Notes: generated by a model not told the origin, from the letters alone. Positions 5,555 to 16,970 are shown, counted from the first letter of the stretch. The stretch is DNA of 64,000 nucleotides from Pseudomonadota bacterium (GCA_021785515.1 JAJYEX010000006.1:32887-96886); one strand, 5' to 3'. Numbers and translations: made by a program.

Positions 5555-6160
5555 GTGAACGTGAACGCGGCAAGCTCCAGGACCGAACAGCGGCAGCGTT
5601 TGCGTATGAAGCGCAGGGCGCTGTCGGCAGCGCAACAGGCGCGGTCTGCGACACTTCTGGCGAACCGGGTTTCGGCATCGCCCATGTTCCGGTGTGCGCG
5701 GCGCATCGCCTGCTATCTTCCGAATGATGGCGAGATCGATCCACGTCCGCTGATGCAGCGCATATGGCGGATGCGCAAGTTTTGTTTTCTTCCGGTCCTG
5801 TCGCGCCTGTTCCACGACCGCCTGTGGTTCGCTCCGGCCACATCACGCAGCATATTCTGGCCGAACCGGTTCGGCATCCCTGAACCTGTAACGGACCCGC
5901 ACCAGTGGCTTCGTGCTCAGGAACTTGATCTCATATTGGTGCCATTGGTCGGATTTGACCCACAAGGCAATCGGCTCGGAATGGGCGGGGGTTTCTATGA
6001 TCGCAGCCTGGAATTTCTGCAAGGGCGGAGCCGCTGGTTACATCCCCGGCTGCTCGGTCTGGCCCATGACTTTCAAAGGCTTGAGGCCGTTACGCCGTCG
6101 CCCTGGGACGTGCCACTACAGGGGATAGCCACCGAACGCGCGCTCTACCTCGCGCCGTGA
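5555..6160 (+). CDS. ygfA: 5-formyltetrahydrofolate cyclo-ligase
   Basis: ORF 5411..6160 trimmed to the in-frame GTG just after the 6S RNA. Motifs seen: RQRLRMKRRALS, ACYLPNDGEIDP, LILVPLVGFDPQGNRLGMGGGFYDR. The start codon is uncertain (5555, 5561 or 5606). Confidence 0.8.
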   Translation: MNVNAASSRTEQRQRLRMKRRALSAAQQARSATLLANRVSASPMFRCARRIACYLPNDGEIDPRPLMQRIWRMRKFCFLPVLSRLFHDRLWFAPATSRSIFWPNRFGIPEPVTDPHQWLRAQELDLILVPLVGFDPQGNRLGMGGGFYDRSLEFLQGRSRWLHPRLLGLAHDFQRLEAVTPSPWDVPLQGIATERALYLAP

Positions 6161-6276
6161 AGGCGGCACACCCGCGCTTATTATCGGCGGCAAAAATTGT
6201 TTTTGCCGGCGCTCAGGGAATGGCGTGCGGCGGCGTATGAGGAAAACGGGGTTTTGACACAGTTCGAGAAAAGCTC

Positions 6277-6765
6277 ATGACCCGTGGCAAACCGGCGTCC
6301 GTTGGCTACTGGCTATTCAAGACCGAACCATCCGCCTTCAGCATTACGGACCTCAAAAACCGCAAAAGCCGCACGGAACACTGGGATGGGGTGCGGAATT
6401 TCCAGGCACGCAATTTCATGCGCGATGACATGCGCCTGGGAGATCTTGGCTTCTTTTACCATTCGAGCTGTTCTGATCCGGCTATTGTGGGGATTGTGGA
6501 GATCGTCAGGACTGGCTACCCCGATTTCACGGCATTCGACTCGAAAGAGCCTCATTACGATCCGAAAAGCACACCGCAACGACCTCTGTGGTACATGGTA
6601 GACGTGCACCTGAAACGTGAACTCCGGGAACCGATAACACTGCGTGAACTGAAAGCTCAGCCCGCACTTGCAGACATGCGTCTGCTGTCCCGGGGTAACC
6701 GGCTGTCGGTCATGCCCGTGAATTTGCAGGAATGGGAATACATCCTTGGAATGGATCACCGTTGA
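6277..6765 (+). CDS. EVE domain-containing protein (PUA-like, DUF55)
   Basis: 162 aa. YWLFKTEPSAFSITDL...HWDGVRNFQARNFMRDDMRLGDLGFFYHS...IVGIVEIV is the characteristic EVE signature. Confidence 0.85.
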   Translation: MTRGKPASVGYWLFKTEPSAFSITDLKNRKSRTEHWDGVRNFQARNFMRDDMRLGDLGFFYHSSCSDPAIVGIVEIVRTGYPDFTAFDSKEPHYDPKSTPQRPLWYMVDVHLKRELREPITLRELKAQPALADMRLLSRGNRLSVMPVNLQEWEYILGMDHR

Positions 6766-7439
6766 TTGCGCTTTATCATTTCTGGTGGTCCCCGGCCTCG
6801 CAGCGGGTGCGGCTCGCGCTGGGTTATAAGGGGATTGTTTGTGAGAACCGGCCGCTTGCGTTTGACGACGACGAAACCTTCTTTGCGCTCGGCGTGGCAC
6901 GCAGCGTGCCGGTACTACAGCACGACGATGGCCGCATCTGGACCGACTCTGTTGCAATACTGGAACAGCTGGACACGCTCTGGCCGGACGAACCCATTTT
7001 TTCTGGCGTACTTCCCACAGTCGAGTGGGATGGCCTGCTCGCGTGGCGAAAATCCGCAAACGCGCTTTTTGACCGCCTGTACGCGCCGGTCATGCCTGCC
7101 TTCCGCGGACTTGGAGACAGCGAGCCGGCCATGACTGCCTACCGGTCGGAAGTCTTACACCGTTTTGGGGTCAGCATCGAAGAGTTGTCAAATGACCGCT
7201 ACGCCGCGTATGACCAGCTCATGACAGTGGCGCATCTGCGGGATTTGGCGACGCGGCTGGCCCGAAGCAGGTTTTACGCGGGCCGACCGTCTGCTGCCGA
7301 CATGCTACTGGCGGCGGATCTCTTTCCGCTGCAGCTGCTCGATGGCGTCACGCTGCCGCTGGACCTGATGTATTACGTTCGGCGAGTGGAGGAGATTTGC
7401 CGAACCAGTCTACGTGACGGACTATGCACAATAGGGTAG
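6732..7439 (+). CDS. Glutathione S-transferase family protein
   Basis: Thioredoxin-like GST N-domain: LYHFWWSPASQRVRLALGYKGI...SVPVLQHDDGRIWTDSVAILEQLD. The start is either the ATG at 6732 (overlapping the EVE gene) or the TTG at 6762. Confidence 0.7.
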   Translation: MGIHPWNGSPLIALYHFWWSPASQRVRLALGYKGIVCENRPLAFDDDETFFALGVARSVPVLQHDDGRIWTDSVAILEQLDTLWPDEPIFSGVLPTVEWDGLLAWRKSANALFDRLYAPVMPAFRGLGDSEPAMTAYRSEVLHRFGVSIEELSNDRYAAYDQLMTVAHLRDLATRLARSRFYAGRPSAADMLLAADLFPLQLLDGVTLPLDLMYYVRRVEEICRTSLRDGLCTIG

Positions 7440-10594: not shown

Positions 10595-11986
10595 TCAGAT
10601 GAACCGGCGGTTGATCTGAATATTGAGTTTCTTGATGCGATGCCATAGGCTGCGTTCGGAAATCCCCAGGCGTTTGGCGGCATGCACCTGGACCCCCCCG
10701 CAATCCTCCAGAGCCTTAAGAATCGCGCGGCGCTCAACGTCGGCCAGCCAGCTGTCCAGATCCTGATTCTCGGCGCGGTCTCCCGTGCAACCGGCTGTCT
10801 GCCCGGAAATTGCAGCGCCCCGTACTGCTTCCGGAAGATCCCGAGGCCCTATCTCGCTACCCCGGCACGAGAGCAGCGAACGCTCGACCGCATTGCGCAA
10901 TTCGCGGACGTTTCCGGGCCACGGATAGCGCGCCAGGACCTGAACCGCCTCAGGGGTAAATCGCCGCACTGGCTTGTCCGTTTCCCGTGATATTTCACGC
11001 AGAAAGTATTCGGCAAGCAGCTCGATGTCGTCTCCCCGCTCACGCAAGGGCGGCACCACAATGTTGTATACATCTAGCCGGTAGAGCAGGTCCTCCCTGA
11101 ATTTTCCTTGTCGCACCAGCTCCTTGAGATCACGGTTGGTTGCAGCAAGAAAGCGCACGTCGGCGCTGCGCACCTGATCGCTGCCGACTGGAGAAAACTC
11201 ACGCTCTTGAAGGACGCGCAACAGCTTTGCCTGGAGCGCGGGCGCCAGGTCGCCGATTTCGTCAAGAAACAGGGTTCCGCCCTGCGCCTGCTCAAGCCGG
11301 CCCAGACGGTTTTGGACCGCACCGGTGAAAGCACCCTTGACGTAGCCGAAGAGCTCGCTTTCCATAAGGTCATGGGGAATCGCCGAGCAGTTGATGGCCA
11401 CCCAAGGATACGGGCATCTCGGACTGTTTTCGTGGATCGTGCGCGCCACCAGCTCCTTGCCGGTTCCGCTTTCGCCCGTGATCAGCACACTGGTACGGTA
11501 TGGCGCGACTAGGCGCACCTCATCGAGCAGACGCTGGAGCGCCTGGCTTATCCCGATCAGGCGCGGGCGAACCAACACTTCGGACACCGTCTCCTTCAAT
11601 CTCTGATTCTCATGGAGGATATCGCGAAGCTTAGTTGCATTGTGGACAGTGATTTCGAGGTCTTCGGGCTCGAAAGGCTTGGTCAGGTAATCAGTCGCCC
11701 CCGCGTTGATGCTCTGTACCGCGGATCGAATGGTTCCATGCGCGGTGACCACGATAACCGGCACATCCGGCCGCTCCAGGCGGCAGATTCGAATGAACTC
11801 CTCTCCACCCATTCCTGGCATCCTGAGGTCCGACAGCACCACGTCGAGGTTGGGGTTGGTCAGGTGCGCAATACCCGCCTCTGCGTTATCGGCAAGCATC
11901 ACTTCATAACCGGCGCTCTCCAAGATCATGCGGATCACGGTCTGCATGTTTTGCTCGTCATCAACAACGAGAACGGTTCGCTTCAT
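10595..11986 (-). CDS. Sigma-54-dependent two-component response regulator (NtrC/ZraR family)
   Basis: Receiver domain (VLVVDDE...DVVLSDLRMPGMGG), AAA+ domain with Walker A GESGTGKE and the sigma-54 contact motif GAFTGA (VKGAFTGAV), and a C-terminal Fis-type HTH (AAKRLGISERSLWHRIKKL). Confidence 0.9.
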   Translation of the reverse strand: MKRTVLVVDDEQNMQTVIRMILESAGYEVMLADNAEAGIAHLTNPNLDVVLSDLRMPGMGGEEFIRICRLERPDVPVIVVTAHGTIRSAVQSINAGATDYLTKPFEPEDLEITVHNATKLRDILHENQRLKETVSEVLVRPRLIGISQALQRLLDEVRLVAPYRTSVLITGESGTGKELVARTIHENSPRCPYPWVAINCSAIPHDLMESELFGYVKGAFTGAVQNRLGRLEQAQGGTLFLDEIGDLAPALQAKLLRVLQEREFSPVGSDQVRSADVRFLAATNRDLKELVRQGKFREDLLYRLDVYNIVVPPLRERGDDIELLAEYFLREISRETDKPVRRFTPEAVQVLARYPWPGNVRELRNAVERSLLSCRGSEIGPRDLPEAVRGAAISGQTAGCTGDRAENQDLDSWLADVERRAILKALEDCGGVQVHAAKRLGISERSLWHRIKKLNIQINRRFI

Positions 11987-11995
11987 GTGGATCGT

Positions 11996-13780
11996 CTAGG
12001 CATGGGTTGGAAATGACATGGCGAACCGGGCGCCGCTCCTGCCGGGCTCGAGCACCCTTAATCTTCCGCCGTTTACTTCTACGAGCGTATTGGCGAGCGA
12101 CAGACCAAGCCCCGTACCACGTTCCTTAGTGGTAAAGAACGGCTCGAACAGACGCGGCATGACTTCCGCCGGAATGCCGGGTCCGTTGTCTTCCACGGAT
12201 ACTGTTACCTCACCGGCCTTTACCTCGGTCACGACCTCCAGCTGCCCTCCCGAGTCCCCCATCGCCTGCAGCGCGTTCGTGAGTATGTTTGCCCACGCCT
12301 GCTGCAGCAGGCCGGCATCTGCCATGATGCGTGCAGATCCGTGACCTATTCTCTCATGCACCCCGACGGCGACGTTTCCTGCCAGTGCGGCAGCAAGCGC
12401 CCGCTTTAGTGGTACCAATGGATCAATCGGTGCGGACTCTGGATGCCGGCGCCGCGAGAGCTGCAGAAAATCCTGCACGAGACTTCCAACCCTCATGCTT
12501 TCCTCGCGGATCATCCGCAGCAGCTCCGCCTTCTTTTGTGGAGCCAGATCCGGTTTCTCCATAAGCGCCGATGCGCTGTTAATGACCCCGATCGGATTGC
12601 GGATTTCGTGGGCCAGAGAAGCGGAAAGCTCGCCCAGGGCGGCAAGCTTGTCCCGGTGAAATCTCTGCTGCTGTTCGTCGCGCGCCTCGCGCAAGCTTCC
12701 AGCCATGGCATTGAAGGCCTTGGCTAGATCGCCGACCTCATCGTCGGATGTCACCGGAACGGCAGCATTGAAATTCTGTGCCGCAAGCTGCATAACGCCA
12801 TCACGCAGGTGCTCCACCGGCCGTACGACAAGGCGGCTGAGCAGATACCCGGTGACAACACCGAACACTACACCGATAAGGGAAATGCCGGAAAAGAGCA
12901 TCAGACGGCTGGTTAGCACTTCCTCATATCCCGCACGCTTGAGGCCGTTGAAGATTACCGCCTCGACCCGGCCGTCGTTAGTGATGACCGGGGTGTACTG
13001 GCCCCTGAAATCGGCGTTTTCAGCCTTGACGCTGTAGTAGGGCGTGCGCCGCGACTGCAGCCGCTTCATCAAGTATGGCGGGAGGCGTCTGAATGATTTC
13101 CGTCCTGCATTGGAAAACATGTCCCGGTAAACATCTCCATCGCGGTAATACAGCCGCGTCGTGAGGCCCGTCAGACGAGATAGTTCATTGATAAAATTCC
13201 GGCCAAGAAAACTTCCCATGACCAGATAGTACCGGGTCGGCCCGCGCGCCGGCACGCGCGTGATGCCCACTGCCACAAGCTGTGCACGCCCGCCCTGGTT
13301 TACCTTTAGCACAGCCTCGGTCTGAACTTTGTCCCACATGGTGCGCATGCCCATCGGCCGCGAGGAATACACCAGGGTCTGGTCACCGCTGTAGATCTGA
13401 ATGAAGCTTATCCCCATCTCCCGAGCCATGTGCACAAGCGAGGGTTCGACGGGATTCGGGTCGCCCGCATTGAGTCGGGCCAGAAAAGCGGGGTCCTGAG
13501 CCAGGATGCCGCCGAACATTACCGCATCATTCTGGTAGGCACGCAGCCAAGTCTGATCAACCCGCGCGGCATCGACGATATAGTGCTTCAGTCGTTCCTC
13601 AAAGCCCGAAGACACCCACTCGGAGGCCAGCATGGCAGCACCCAGCATTGGGACCACGATGATCGCCAAGATCAGCAGCAGCACTTTGCGCTGAAGACGA
13701 TTGAGGTGGAAGGATTCCGGGCGCACAAAGGTTCCTGTTTTCGAGTAGTCTACAAAATTTGGAGTTTGCGAGGGATCCAT
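11996..13780 (-). CDS. Sensor histidine kinase with a large periplasmic sensing domain, HAMP, HisKA and HATPase domains
   Basis: 594 aa. Two TM segments flank a roughly 270-aa extracytoplasmic domain. HAMP (DEVGDLAKAFNAMAGSL), H-box SLAHEIRNPIGVI, and G-boxes DNGPGI / GTGLGLS. The gene lies 9 nt upstream of the response regulator gene. Confidence 0.85.
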   Translation of the reverse strand: MDPSQTPNFVDYSKTGTFVRPESFHLNRLQRKVLLLILAIIVVPMLGAAMLASEWVSSGFEERLKHYIVDAARVDQTWLRAYQNDAVMFGGILAQDPAFLARLNAGDPNPVEPSLVHMAREMGISFIQIYSGDQTLVYSSRPMGMRTMWDKVQTEAVLKVNQGGRAQLVAVGITRVPARGPTRYYLVMGSFLGRNFINELSRLTGLTTRLYYRDGDVYRDMFSNAGRKSFRRLPPYLMKRLQSRRTPYYSVKAENADFRGQYTPVITNDGRVEAVIFNGLKRAGYEEVLTSRLMLFSGISLIGVVFGVVTGYLLSRLVVRPVEHLRDGVMQLAAQNFNAAVPVTSDDEVGDLAKAFNAMAGSLREARDEQQQRFHRDKLAALGELSASLAHEIRNPIGVINSASALMEKPDLAPQKKAELLRMIREESMRVGSLVQDFLQLSRRRHPESAPIDPLVPLKRALAAALAGNVAVGVHERIGHGSARIMADAGLLQQAWANILTNALQAMGDSGGQLEVVTEVKAGEVTVSVEDNGPGIPAEVMPRLFEPFFTTKERGTGLGLSLANTLVEVNGGRLRVLEPGRSGARFAMSFPTHA

Positions 13781-13808
13781 CTGGCGTCACCAGCTATCGA
13801 ATTCTTTA

Positions 13809-13821
13809 TAAGACATTGATT
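13809..13821. promoter_or_regulatory. IHF-consensus site between the kinase gene and the sigma-54 promoter
   Basis: TAAGACATTGATT is the reverse complement of WATCAANNNNTTR with every specified position matching. It is centred about 60 nt upstream of the predicted sigma-54 start site, in the only AT-rich patch of the locus. Confidence 0.3.
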
Positions 13822-13850
13822 ATAAACAATAGTATAAGCAAGTCCCAATT

Positions 13851-13866
13851 TGGCACGTGGATTGCT
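13851..13866 (+). promoter_or_regulatory. Sigma-54 (-24/-12) promoter
   Basis: TGGCACgtggaTTGCT is an exact match to TGGCAC-N5-TTGCW. It lies about 85 nt upstream of the GTG of the small His/Arg-rich ORF and is divergent from a sigma-54 activator operon. Confidence 0.7.
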
Positions 13867-13951
13867 TTTAGCCACCCAGCAAGGATGGACTGAAGTTAGC
13901 TCCGTCCATCCGGCATGCAGTCAGAAACGTCAACTGTTTGAGGATAAATAC

Positions 13952-14164
13952 GTGAAAAAGACTCTGTTGGGCCTCATAGCCCTCGCGTTGGTAGCCGTGT
14001 CCGGTAACGCTGCGATCGCTGCGCCCGTGGTTAAACACAAAGCCGAGCATCGGCTTGTGCACAGAAGGGTGGTGCACAGACGGATAGTTCGTCACCGCAT
14101 CGTTCACCGGCGCGTGGCGAAAAAGGTCGGGCACAAGAAGATGGTTGCCCACCACAAGAAGTAA
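13952..14164 (+). CDS. Secreted 70-aa His/Arg/Lys-rich mini-protein with HRR(V/I)V pseudo-repeats
   Basis: GTG start preceded by GAGGA. Sec signal peptide VKKTLLGLIALALVAVSGNAAIA|AP. The 47-aa mature part is APVVKHKAEHRLVHRRVVHRRIVRHRIVHRRVAKKVGHKKMVAHHKK. A strong hairpin follows. The longer track ORF from 13850 would include the promoter itself. Confidence 0.6.
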   Translation: MKKTLLGLIALALVAVSGNAAIAAPVVKHKAEHRLVHRRVVHRRIVRHRIVHRRVAKKVGHKKMVAHHKK

Positions 14165-14225
14165 TTGCTTCAACCGCCGGTATAGACCCCGGTCTGGGGA
14201 CTGCTTTACGCAACCGGCGACCAGT

Positions 14226-14263
14226 CAGACAGGGCGGCGGGAAATCGCCGCCCTGTCTGCTTT
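14226..14263. terminator. Intrinsic-terminator-like hairpin between the convergent mini-protein gene and trxC
   Basis: Perfect 14-bp GC-rich stem CAGACAGGGCGGCG / CGCCGCCCTGTCTG with a 6-nt loop, followed by CTTTCC on the plus strand. Confidence 0.6.
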
Positions 14264-14341
14264 CCAAACGTCAACGGCGCAGGTACCTTAGCGCCTGGTA
14301 ACACCCATCTGCCCTGCATCGGTTTCCTGGGGCATGTACAC

Positions 14342-14776
14342 CTACACATGCTGCTCGATCCACGATTGCAGGCCGCGCGGGTCAAGCGCACCTGACACTC
14401 TGGCGGCTTCGCGCCCATCTTTGAAGAGAATCAACGTCGGAATTCCGCGGATGCCATACTCGCTCGCGAGGCCCTGTTCGACGTCGGTATCCACCTTGGC
14501 GAACTGGACACGGCCAATCATCCGAGCCGCAGCTGAGGCGAATACCGGGGCCATCACCTTGCACGGTCCACACCATGGCGCCCAGAAATCCACAAGCAAT
14601 GGAATATCACCATGCTGTGCGTGCCGATGAAAATTGCCCGCCTTTAGCTCCAGAGGCCGGCCTTCGAACAACACACCATGACAGACTCCACACTTGGGCT
14701 GATCCCGAATGCGGTCTTCGGGCACCCTGTTCAATCCTTCGCAATGCGGACACACAACCACTTTTGGCGAAGCCAC
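14342..14776 (-). CDS. trxC: Thioredoxin 2 (zinc-finger thioredoxin)
   Basis: N-terminal CPHC...CGVC zinc-finger pair, WCGPC active site, and GIRGIPTLILFKDG. The start is placed at the GTG at 14776 by analogy with the length of E. coli TrxC. The track ORF extends to 14863. Confidence 0.85.
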   Translation of the reverse strand: MASPKVVVCPHCEGLNRVPEDRIRDQPKCGVCHGVLFEGRPLELKAGNFHRHAQHGDIPLLVDFWAPWCGPCKVMAPVFASAAARMIGRVQFAKVDTDVEQGLASEYGIRGIPTLILFKDGREAARVSGALDPRGLQSWIEQHV

Positions 14777-14975
14777 GGAACAATACCCCACAAATATTGC
14801 CTGCTTGGAAAATGGGGGCAGTGGGGTGGATTTTCCACACTGGACGAGGCGGGAGCAGCACAAACGGGGGCCCGAAGGGTCCCCAGCCCGGATCTTTGGC
14901 TTTCGATTGACTCTGGCGCCTCTTGGAAGGGGCCCGGCGGGGACCCCTTCGCACGCAAGCAGCTTGCGGAAGCGG

Positions 14976-15671
14976 TCAGCGGCGGCGGGTGCGCCCAGCC
15001 CTGCCCTTCGACCGCGGCATGGACTTCTTGCCGGCAGGCTTTTTCGCCGCCTTTTTCTTCACAGCCTTTTTGGCCACAGCGGACCTAGCCTTGACGGCAA
15101 GGGCTGGGGATTTCGCCTCTCGAGACGCGGCGCGTTTGGCAGTCTTGGCAGTCTTGGCAGTCTTGGCAGTCTTGGCAGTCTTGGCAGTCTTGGCAGTCTT
15201 GGCAGTCTTGGCAGTCTTTCTTGGCTCAGACAACACAATGGACTTGATCCTGTCGGCAACCAGACTGAGATATCTGCGATTGGTCGCCATGTGTTCGATC
15301 GCCGCTTGCGCCATGTCGGACGCCGTTTCGTCCGTCCTGAACTGGCGAAATGCCATTTCGATCAGACTGTCCTCGTACGCGCGGGACCGCGCCGTCTCAG
15401 GTCCGGCGGTCGCAAGCAGCGTACGGAGCGTGTCCACTGAGCTGAGATGAATCTCGTAAAGTCTCTTCGCGCGTTCCGCACCAACCCAGCTTATTGGCGT
15501 CCAGTGGTCACCACCAGACCCGGGGTTGCCCAGATAATCTTGCCAGACTGTGATCGCCTCTTCGCAGTTTGACGCAAGCGACCCCAGGCATTCTGCTATC
15601 CGGTCACGATCCGCGGAGCGCTCCCGGCTCCAGCCCTTTACAACAGCAACGACATCGTCAATACCCTTCAT
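14976..15671 (-). CDS. Hypothetical protein: unknown roughly 150-aa N-domain, (Thr-Ala-Lys)x9 repeat, and a histone-H1-like Lys/Ala-rich tail
   Basis: 231-aa ORF with a balanced N-terminal composition (MKGIDDVVAVVKGWSRERSADRDRIAECLGS...). This is followed by PRK(TAK)9RAASREAKSPALAVKARSAVAKKAVKKKAAKKPAGKK. The competing plus-strand frames read GSLGSL.. or LAVLAV.. within otherwise Arg/Gly-rich junk. Confidence 0.7.
   Translation of the reverse strand: MKGIDDVVAVVKGWSRERSADRDRIAECLGSLASNCEEAITVWQDYLGNPGSGGDHWTPISWVGAERAKRLYEIHLSSVDTLRTLLATAGPETARSRAYEDSLIEMAFRQFRTDETASDMAQAAIEHMATNRRYLSLVADRIKSIVLSEPRKTAKTAKTAKTAKTAKTAKTAKTAKTAKRAASREAKSPALAVKARSAVAKKAVKKKAAKKPAGKKSMPRSKGRAGRTRRR
15135..15215. 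repeat. Tandem 9-bp repeat (CTTGGCAGT x8 perfect, plus one TTTGGCAGT variant), in frame within the CDS
   Basis: Direct reading: tttggcagt followed by eight identical cttggcagt units, 81 bp in total, encoding TAK x9 on the minus strand. Confidence 0.95.
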
Positions 15672-15830: not shown

Positions 15831-16970
15831 GTGAGGCTGGGCATGATTGAAATGGAACCCGAGCCGGGATCAGGGTTCATCCAGGCATTACAGCCTATTA
15901 CGACATTGAGTCCCCTGCGTATCGAGGAACTGAAACCGCTGTGCCACATGGAGAGTGTTCCTGCAGGCATGACACTTTTTCGTGAGGGGGAAGCTGACCA
16001 CCAGACCATCTACCTGTTACTGGGCGAGGTGGTCTTGAGCAGCACGGCCAATGAACTCAGCTGTGTGCTGACGGCACCCGGAGACAGGGGTGAGCCGGAT
16101 CGGCTGTTTCGTCCCATAGCCGACCAGCAACCGCGCCGGCTGTCCGCGATGGCGATCACCCGTCTCGATATCATGCGAGTCGACAGCGAGCTGCTGGATA
16201 TCCTTGTTACATGGGACGCGCTCGCGCGCTGCCAGGCAGCAACATCGATCAGCTCCGGTACCCAACCCGGCGTCAGGCATGACTGGATGGGCAATGTCCA
16301 GCAATGCCTTGCATTCCGCAGCCTGCCCGCACCCAGTCTAGCCATGCTCGGCGTAAAGCTGGAGCCGGTTGCGGTGCGCGCTGGGCAAGTCGTGGCCCGC
16401 GAAGGCGATCGCGCCCGCGACTATTATCTGATTGAAAACGGTACGGCAACCATGACCCGCGAAACCGACGGTCTCGGCCCAGCCGATACGACAACGCTGG
16501 GTCCCGGGGCAGGATTTGGCGGGGAAAGCCTGGCGGATGAAGAATGCAGCTGGCAGGCCAGCGTTGCCATGGACACACGCGGCACCCTGCTCCGCTTGGC
16601 CCGCGCCGATTTCGTTGATTTGAGGCGAATACCGTTGCCGAACAGCCTGTCCCCTTCCCAAGCCCTGTCGAAGACCGCGTCGGGGGCGGTCTGGCTCGAC
16701 GTCCGAGAGCTGGAAGAGTCGCCGGACTCCCTTCTGCCGGACGCCCATCACGTGCCCCTAGACACGCTCTGCCAAGTAGCCGACAGTCTGGAACAGGGCC
16801 GCGAATACATCTGCTGCTGCAATACCGGCCGGCGCAGCGCGCTGGCGGCCTACCTCCTCGGACAGCGTGGCCTGGACGCCTACGTGCTGGCCGGAGGGCT
16901 AAGGAGTGTGCCCGAAGGCTTCGGGGTTGTGGCTCATGACAGTATTCCAGCCACAAACCAGTCAGGATGA
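15831..16970 (+). CDS. Protein with two cyclic-nucleotide-binding domains and a C-terminal rhodanese domain
   Basis: GTG start. Two CAP-effector-like segments (VPAGMTLFREGEADHQTIYLLLGEVVL and VRAGQVVAREGDRARDYYLIENGTA...GFGGESL). A rhodanese module follows, with active-site loop CCCNTGRRS and AVWLDVRE. Confidence 0.8.
   Translation: MRLGMIEMEPEPGSGFIQALQPITTLSPLRIEELKPLCHMESVPAGMTLFREGEADHQTIYLLLGEVVLSSTANELSCVLTAPGDRGEPDRLFRPIADQQPRRLSAMAITRLDIMRVDSELLDILVTWDALARCQAATSISSGTQPGVRHDWMGNVQQCLAFRSLPAPSLAMLGVKLEPVAVRAGQVVAREGDRARDYYLIENGTATMTRETDGLGPADTTTLGPGAGFGGESLADEECSWQASVAMDTRGTLLRLARADFVDLRRIPLPNSLSPSQALSKTASGAVWLDVRELEESPDSLLPDAHHVPLDTLCQVADSLEQGREYICCCNTGRRSALAAYLLGQRGLDAYVLAGGLRSVPEGFGVVAHDSIPATNQSG

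Follow-up and report, generated by a model that had tools for sequence, protein, structure and literature searches.

A conserved NtrC-class two-component module with a divergent sigma-54-type promoter and a predicted secreted, polycationic mini-protein

A conserved kinase, regulator, and mini-gene unit

In a 64,000-nucleotide stretch of DNA from a Pseudomonadota bacterium (GCA_021785515.1 JAJYEX010000006.1:32887-96886; hereafter the window), positions 10595-14263 hold a histidine kinase and an NtrC-family response regulator that face leftward and, divergent from them, a sigma-54-type promoter followed by a small open reading frame (ORF) for a predicted secreted mini-protein of 70 residues. Comparison of related loci indicates that kinase, regulator, and sigma-54 mini-gene are a real conserved module in an order of sulfur- and iron-oxidizing bacteria. 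The reading that we favor, which we consider probable though far from assured, is that of a dedicated circuit from sensor to mini-protein with one adjacent output, the product being a polycationic periplasmic mini-protein. A sequence-only reading of this DNA had proposed such a self-contained divergent unit, and the conservation of both the promoter and the ORF across loci bears this out.

Related loci were found with a profile of the kinase sensor domain, run against a single genome from each species; the 78 that resulted belong for the most part to metagenome-assembled genomes of Acidiferrobacterales, Sulfuricaulis, Sulfurifustaceae, and 'Muproteobacteria'. Promoter conservation was counted in the 47 loci that have a sensor identity of 43% or more and sufficient upstream sequence. 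An exact TGGCAY-N5-TTGC stands at the equivalent position in 45 of these 47; its distance from the kinase start is 108-141 nt except in L041 and L046, which carry an insertion. In L022 the promoter has a one-base variant. Every readable locus with the promoter has a small ORF 81-116 nt past it. The sequence-only reading had been staked beforehand on the presence of promoter and small ORF at orthologous loci, and both are kept there. A search of protein databases with the mini-protein itself returned three homologues of 61-64% identity, and all three lie in the same order of genes: ilvA, rpiA, regulator, kinase, divergent mini-ORF, and convergent thioredoxin.

The sigma-54 promoter and its upstream elements

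The promoter (TGGCACGTGGATTGC, 13851-13865, plus strand) is an exact match to TGGCAC-N5-TTGC at -24/-12, pointing rightward as had been proposed. It has the sequence hallmarks of a sigma-54 promoter, with GG and GC doublets 10 bp apart in an intergenic position, and we infer from these that the mini-gene depends on sigma-54. By the -12 convention, transcription would start near 13877.

Upstream of the promoter lies a candidate enhancer, or upstream activating sequence (UAS), a 15-bp palindrome at 13750-13764 (CTACAAAATTTGGAG; consensus CTACAAAnTTTGTAG) whose center is 95 bp from the -24 GG. In a multiple alignment of the intergenic regions between kinase and mini-ORF from about 48 loci, on which our counts of cis-elements are based, the palindrome CTACAAAnTTTG(T/A)AG hardly varies; the copy in the window has one mismatch and is the only match there at up to 2 mismatches, with 0.03 expected. 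Measured from palindrome center to -24 GG, the distances group at 81-83, 91-98, 102-105, and 113-117 bp, classes that lie about one helical turn apart. Because it is conserved and its spacing classes are helically phased to the promoter, the palindrome is likely the regulator's enhancer site. Neither a second palindrome nor a convincing sigma-54 site was found elsewhere within the 64-kb window.

Between the UAS and the promoter, an AT-rich patch holds an IHF-like site (AATCAATGTCTTA, 13809-13821, minus strand) that matches WATCAANNNNTTR in full, as the sequence-only reading had it. Across the alignment, 15 of 48 loci have an exact box of the form YAAnnnnTTGATW, and 32 of 48 have one with at most one mismatch, located between -30 and -50 (mostly -40/-42) relative to TGGCA. 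Aligned with the close homologue loci, the intergenic region is conserved at the -24/-12 element, the IHF-like box, the palindrome, and a block in the 5' untranslated region (UTR), while the flanking bases drift.

On the kinase side, a sigma-70-like promoter, TTGGGA-18-TATAAT (13819-13848, minus strand; 10 of 12 positions match), could drive the kinase operon; it is not clearly conserved. No GG-N10-GC sigma-54 promoter facing that operon was found on the minus strand of 13727-13900. If the sigma-70-like promoter is used, the leader of the kinase mRNA would include the regulator's own predicted site, and the operon could therefore be autoregulated.

A few loci differ in the arrangement of these elements. 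Among the close orthologous loci, L052 alone is missing palindrome, promoter, and mini-ORF, and there the neighboring region directly abuts the kinase. L041 and L046 carry an insert of about 120-150 bp between the kinase start and the palindrome, with the palindrome-promoter spacing kept at 95-96 bp. The insert in L046 has an internal direct repeat and may for this reason be a small mobile element.

Duplicated cassettes and a second occupant of the slot

Four loci (L024, L044, L045, and L050) have a second cassette about 500 bp beyond the first promoter, with its own terminator, palindrome, and sigma-54 promoter, which encodes a paralogous small secreted protein with a KCPEGQVYNKKDKKC motif. 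In L087, three genes for small secreted proteins follow one another (5770-6803). These tandem cassettes indicate that palindrome, promoter, and mini-gene form the unit that is duplicated and regulated.

A sister clade of kinases with 36-42% sensor identity, from Thiogranum, Ectothiorhodospiraceae, and Imhoffiella, keeps the palindrome together with TGGCCC-N5-TTGC (L056, L058-L064, L066, L070-L071, and L073). The gene downstream of the promoter in these loci encodes a protein of about 290 residues with Sel1 repeats in place of the mini-protein.

An unnamed NtrC-class pair with a predicted double-Cache sensor

The regulator (463 aa; 10595-11986, minus strand) is assigned by Pfam and NCBIfam to the sigma-54 enhancer-binding response regulators of the NtrC family, and it has every domain that defines them: REC (PF00072, 4e-29), Sigma54_activat (PF00158, 3e-68), AAA_lid_14 (PF25601), and HTH_8 (PF02954). 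The GAFTGA motif that had been read from the sequence is present at residues 218-223 (codons at 11335-11318), so that the predicted sigma-54 activator is confirmed as a receiver, AAA+, and HTH_8 protein.

The kinase gene (11996-13726, minus strand) is separated from the regulator gene by 9 nt, in the same operon. Its longest ORF reaches back to an ATG at 13780, but we place the start at the GTG at 13726, giving a protein of 576 aa; this GTG has AGGAA upstream and is the start used by gene callers in the protein database and by all close relatives. The upstream ATG was rejected, as the extension is not conserved as protein and overlaps the UAS, and callers and relatives start at a GTG or ATG 54 nt downstream. 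With the GTG as start, 125 nt separate the kinase from the promoter, where the sequence-only reading gave roughly 70 nt. The large periplasmic domain described there is present, as a region of about 260 aa bracketed by two transmembrane (TM) segments and followed by HAMP, HisKA, and HATPase_c domains identified by Pfam.

Neither protein falls into a named system. The kinase scores 199.7 bits against AtoS (NF008468; cut-off 646), covering the kinase core only, and 124.9 bits against ZraS (NF007688; cut-off 479), and the regulator scores 446 bits against AtoC (NF008469; cut-off 714), 416 against NtrC (cut-off 559), and 400 against ZraR (NF007689; cut-off 760). AtoS-AtoC is the nearest of these by score, and neither protein reaches equivalog-level similarity to it. 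Since the scores lie well under every equivalog cut-off, sequence comparison places the two as an unnamed NtrC-class pair.

For the N-terminal 300 residues of the kinase, the AlphaFold2 (AF2) model (mean predicted local distance difference test, pLDDT, 78.7) places a long helix and then two tandem alpha/beta modules of the PDC type between the two TM helices. Foldseek matched this model to double-Cache (dCache) domains (3lie, 7prq, 5lto, 5t65, 2zbb, and 4jgo) with probability 1.0 but TM-scores of only 0.4-0.5; the dCache matches include the histidine kinases 3lie, 3lif, and 8w7p, the chemoreceptors PctA, PctB, PctD, and TlpQ, and also DctB and KinD. By sequence, Pfam dCache_3 and CHASE4 are below threshold on the kinase, and a profile of the sensor compared with the sequences of solved structures gave only a marginal chemoreceptor match. 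The sensor is thus predicted from its model to be a dCache domain, nearer to DctB than to ZraS. Such sensors mostly bind small organic ligands, and amino-acid and amine chemoreceptors are among the matches.

The predicted transcript

Some 6-35 nt into the predicted transcript, the 5' UTR has a stem-loop (GGATGGAC...GTCCATCC, 13883-13911, plus strand). In its 6-pair stem core, 87.8% of cells in the alignment are paired, as against 20-55% in slid controls, and 5 of the 6 pairs show changes on both sides. Support for a conserved stem-loop is moderate, because the structure was specified by hand and derived from the same sequences. The Shine-Dalgarno sequence GAGGA (13940-13944, plus strand) ends 7 nt before the GTG of the mini-ORF; a Shine-Dalgarno (AGGAG/AAGGA) is kept in every locus, and the start ATG/GTG AAA AAG is conserved as well.

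Past the ORF lies a terminator-like hairpin (14226-14259, plus strand; -33.5 kcal/mol) with the loop GAAA. The 14-bp terminator hairpin of the sequence-only reading is present as a strong hairpin, with 14 Watson-Crick pairs plus one G-U pair; its tail, CTTTCC, has only 3 T, and a terminator scanner made no call. At the equivalent position, L001 and L007 carry hairpins of differing sequence that end in TTTT tails. The hairpin in the window may also serve the convergent thioredoxin gene. An Rfam scan of 13600-14400 gave only a chance match to a long non-coding RNA on the opposite strand.

A narrow family of hypervariable mini-proteins

The mini-ORF (13952-14164, plus strand) begins with GTG, and residues 1-23 are a predicted Sec-type signal peptide (MKKTLLGLIALALVAVSGNAAIA). 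The predicted mature 47-mer contains 9 His, 9 Arg, and 8 Lys, is also rich in Val, and has an isoelectric point of about 12 and a net charge of about +16.6 at pH 7, in keeping with the small, secreted, His/Arg/Lys-rich product that had been read from the sequence. Within the window's clade, the ratio of non-synonymous to synonymous substitution rates (dN/dS) is 0.1-0.3 in both leader and mature part. This purifying selection, along with invariant His residues (n=5 in the clade), indicates that the mini-gene encodes a protein. In the AF2 model the window mini-protein forms a single long helix (pLDDT of 84-93 over residues 31-60), and on this predicted helix His recurs at i/i+4 (29, 33, 37; 48, 52). 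The helix is not amphipathic, since hydrophobic pairs recur every five residues.

All of the small ORFs share the signal peptide MKK(T/S)L(I/L)..ALAFA..FG..A.A, and the family alignment has a mean column identity of 32%, nearly all of it in the leader, the mature parts being almost unalignable. The His/Arg-rich tail is limited to the window's clade (L001-L012), clusters of His and Lys occur in L051, L054, and L055, and most family members are rich in Lys, Glu, Ala, and Pro. Family-wide, the net charge is positive (+4 to +17), the leader is followed by an Ala/Pro/Thr spacer that is neutral or acidic, and nearly all members have a C-terminal Lys. Sec substrates usually carry a neutral or acidic stretch after the signal peptide, and from the leader and this export-compatible spacer we infer that the family is exported by Sec.

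Some members have ligand-type residues. If cleavage follows the AxA rule, the mature N terminus would be X-X-His (EKHM, MKHE, AQHE) in about 18 of 45 relatives, among them many Sulfuricaulis-type members, and a Cys pair, ACKxKKxGxxVxVxGKxVxCP, recurs in many members without being universal. An N-terminal X-X-His is the amino-terminal Cu(II)- and Ni(II)-binding (ATCUN) site. The predicted mature N terminus of the window protein, APVVKH, has its His at position 6 and so does not have the X-X-His form.

No Pfam or NCBIfam family matched the window mini-protein beyond a weak lipoprotein-signal Pfam match (E = 0.17), and a lipoprotein reading was rejected as there is no lipobox Cys. Pfam was also run on 35 family members at E up to 1 and gave no meaningful family; among the 25 families listed of the 68 matched there is neither LTXXQ (the family of ZraP, Spy, and CpxP) nor Asr (PF06392). 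LTXXQ is missing for the window protein too, which agrees with the earlier remark that the effector has no Spy/CpxP/ZraP LTxxQ motifs. Relatives in the databases are annotated as hypothetical or bear evidently spurious names. The family is narrow, since only 49 clusters were recovered when 1.84 billion cluster representatives were searched with its profile.

Comparison with known circuits

The sequence-only reading had likened the locus to ZraPSR, and the likeness is partial. In E. coli and Salmonella, ZraS-ZraR is likewise an NtrC-family two-component system divergent from a sigma-54 gene, its main local output, for a small periplasmic protein with His-rich segments (PMC4987338). The likeness stands for gene layout alone. 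The effector here is outside the LTXXQ/Spy/CpxP family, the kinase and regulator are not ZraS/ZraR equivalogs, and the sensor is predicted to be of the dCache type. In addition, both divergent promoters of ZraPSR are sigma-54-dependent (PMC4987338), whereas here only the mini-gene has a sigma-54 promoter and the kinase side has only the sigma-70-like match. As judged from these sequence features, the module departs from ZraPSR in all three that can be tested: effector family, kinase/regulator equivalogs, and paired sigma-54 promoters.

DctB-DctD/dctA of rhizobia offers a second comparison. DctB is a double-PDC kinase that acts with an NtrC-type regulator, divergent from a single sigma-54 target, dctA, with a UAS and an IHF-assisted loop. 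Because the modeled sensor matches dCache domains, that of DctB (2zbb) among them, the wiring of the predicted circuit resembles DctB-DctD/dctA at least as much as it does ZraPSR. The DctBD target, however, is a C4-dicarboxylate transporter rather than a mini-protein, the kinase here has a HAMP domain, and its sensor has no sequence-level relation to DctB.

On the effector side, the likeness to known proteins is looser. Asr of Enterobacteriaceae is a small, Sec-exported, low-complexity periplasmic protein rich in Lys, His, and Ala, a likeness of composition; the window mini-protein differs in being rich in Arg and Val and predicted helical, and in its regulation. PcoE and SilE are small secreted proteins rich in His and Met under two-component control, of the OmpR-type with sigma-70; they are not polycationic and have no homology to the mini-protein. 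LuxO-Qrr pairs an NtrC-type regulator with an adjacent, very short sigma-54-driven gene. GlrR-GlmY has the same arrangement (PMC4987338). The products of both are non-coding RNAs, while the ORF here is under purifying selection. A literature search for a described system of this kind found nothing relevant.

A working model and its alternatives

If the module is a dedicated circuit, a periplasmic cue, which the fold suggests is probably a small molecule or ion, would be sensed by the dCache kinase, and the kinase, from its domain content, would phosphorylate its NtrC-type partner. The phosphorylated regulator would bind CTACAAAnTTTGTAG about 95 bp upstream of the sigma-54 promoter, as conservation and phasing suggest, an IHF-type bend at the positioned consensus would bring it to the closed complex, and ATP hydrolysis would open the complex at the promoter. 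The resulting monocistronic mRNA of about 380 nt, with a stem-loop at its 5' end and a strong hairpin at its 3' end, would then be translated, and a product of about 47 residues, with 9 His and a charge of about +16, would be exported by Sec. There the mini-protein, as one of a narrow and fast-evolving family, would be a charge- or ligand-binding polycation of the periplasm. Through its ladder of His, the version in the window's clade would bind in a way that depends on metal or pH, and the mini-protein may also feed back on the kinase.

Several observations pull the other way. The exact promoter is the sole match in the window, with 0.22 expected and at least one in 20 of 100 shuffles, and this single-window match is not significant alone; that the module is more than chance follows from conservation across loci and not from this statistic. 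A pattern search of the window and the fetched loci for the RpoN box had no match. The IHF box overlaps the possible sigma-70 -10 element of the kinase operon, so its conservation could partly reflect that promoter, and RNAalifold predicted no consensus structure for the 5' UTR. As to the product, the window peptide carries about +4 in its first 18 mature residues, which disfavors Sec export, and with this net positive mature N terminus a membrane-anchored topology with a cytoplasmic tail is possible for the window mini-protein. The mature parts are almost unalignable next to sensors that are 50-85% identical, which argues against a sequence-specific partner. Finally, members such as L039, L020, and L026 are without any His, Cys, or Met.

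This last point bears most directly on the strongest alternative, in which the mini-protein would be a periplasmic sponge or chaperone for Cu, Ni, or Zn in a metal-stress circuit like those of ZraP, PcoE, and SilE. We treat this as a serious option that is nonetheless unlikely. His makes up 19% of the mature window peptide, with 5 residues invariant and HxxxH spacing, and there are relatives with X-X-His plus an adjacent Met, with Met-rich tails, with the Cys pair, or with KKHHHK clusters. But because several members are without His, Cys, and Met, metal binding cannot be the shared function of the family as its sequences stand, and a metal role cannot be read from composition for the whole. 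The envelope or metal stress that the sequence-only reading inferred is a guess, and for the family at large it is weakened. The window peptide is itself without the X-X-His N terminus, the Pfam families listed include neither ZraP/LTXXQ nor a metal-binding family, there are no metal-resistance genes nearby, and dCache sensors mostly take organic ligands.

The fast turnover of sequence under a conserved composition would suit a different role, that of a disordered periplasmic protectant, like Asr or the hydrophilins, made under stress from acid, osmolarity, or desiccation and working through charge and disorder rather than sequence. The layout of signal peptide, Ala/Thr/Pro spacer, and low-complexity tail rich in Lys (or His) and usually ending in Lys also fits, and L051, L054, and L055 (KKHHHKAKKHAKK) look much like E. 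coli Asr in composition. It is countered by the lack of an Asr match among the Pfam families listed and by the confident helix that AF2 gives for the core of the window protein. Asr is under OmpR-type regulators and not sigma-54, which also counts against the idea, and we judge it a little less probable than a metal sponge.

The mini-protein could instead serve mainly to assist its own kinase or to regulate it by feedback, as in CpxP-CpxA, ZraP-ZraS, ExoR-ExoS, and MgrB-PhoQ. Here it is suggestive that kinase and mini-gene stay strictly paired throughout an order-level clade in which the genes on the far side change, as is the Sel1-repeat periplasmic protein in the same UAS/sigma-54 slot of the sister clade; the Sel1-repeat family contains ExoR, the partner of ExoS. 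Yet the hypervariable mature sequences contrast with the highly conserved sensor domain, and some genomes have two or three paralogs, and we find such a role doubtful.

A more ambitious proposal joins several of these threads: the mini-proteins would be a new class of hypervariable polycationic periplasmic effectors that conserve only a leader, a pattern of charge, and a few ligand-type residues. They would close a loop with the dCache kinase, in one version by acting as its ligand or modulator, in another by remodeling the envelope as polycations that pH or metal can switch. We offer this as speculation that is quite improbable as it stands. If true, the ligand or modulator version would be a peptide-based autoregulatory circuit in a Gram-negative bacterium, and the Sel1-repeat swap of the sister clade would mark an interchangeable slot for a 'periplasmic partner' of this kinase family.

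The two remaining alternatives are very improbable. A transcript that works mainly by regulating as an RNA, in the manner of the sigma-54-dependent Qrr, GlmY, and CrcZ, with the ORF secondary or dual-function, would fit the short monocistronic unit between sigma-54 promoter and strong hairpin, the 5' stem-loop conserved with compensatory changes, and the known pattern of sigma-54 small RNA genes adjoining genes for bacterial enhancer-binding proteins, but the ORF is under clear purifying selection, its Shine-Dalgarno, start codon, and signal peptide are kept in all loci, and Rfam found nothing in 13600-14400 beyond the chance opposite-strand match. A cationic antimicrobial peptide or bacteriocin would account for a small, secreted, predicted-helical window peptide with a net charge of +16, but not for a helix that is not amphipathic and has its hydrophobic pairs every 5 residues, for relatives that are mostly Lys/Glu-rich with net charges of only +4 to +10, or for the lack of adjacent immunity, processing, and outer-membrane export genes.

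Significance of the module

Circuits in which a two-component system of the NtrC family lies divergent from its sigma-54 target are well known, and the module does not contradict current understanding. What is new is the effector family, a defined enhancer motif, and an effector slot that is filled by unrelated proteins in sister clades. The dedicated circuit would be compact and apparently has a single output, with sensor, activator, enhancer, bend site, promoter, leader hairpin, and effector all side by side, and the sequence of its secreted effector seems nearly free to diverge while the regulatory cassette stays fixed. The mini-protein family has been left 'hypothetical' or missed by current annotation. 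The Acidiferrobacterales-like sulfur and iron oxidizers that host it are little studied and hard to culture, and the clear definition of the cis-elements means that the signal of the kinase could be sought by reconstructing the circuit in a heterologous host, which would offer a way into what such bacteria sense in mine, aquifer, and sediment habitats.

Neighboring genes

The genes on the regulator side (rpiA, ilvA, and a peptidyl-prolyl isomerase) are syntenic across the order, while those beyond the mini-ORF vary. No gene in either group hints at a function. In the window, the mini-ORF is convergent with a gene for a TrxC-type thioredoxin with an N-terminal zinc ribbon (14342-14863, minus strand), and after the thioredoxin comes a gene for a cyclic nucleotide-binding/rhodanese protein (15831-16970, plus strand); both are syntenic in close relatives. 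A perfect 9-bp tandem repeat, TTGGCAGTC, runs for 9.2 copies at 15136-15218 and encodes a (KTA)n run within an ORF of 231 aa (14976-15671, minus strand). This ORF has no Pfam match, and a 221-225 aa orthologue of it is syntenic in L001 and L008.

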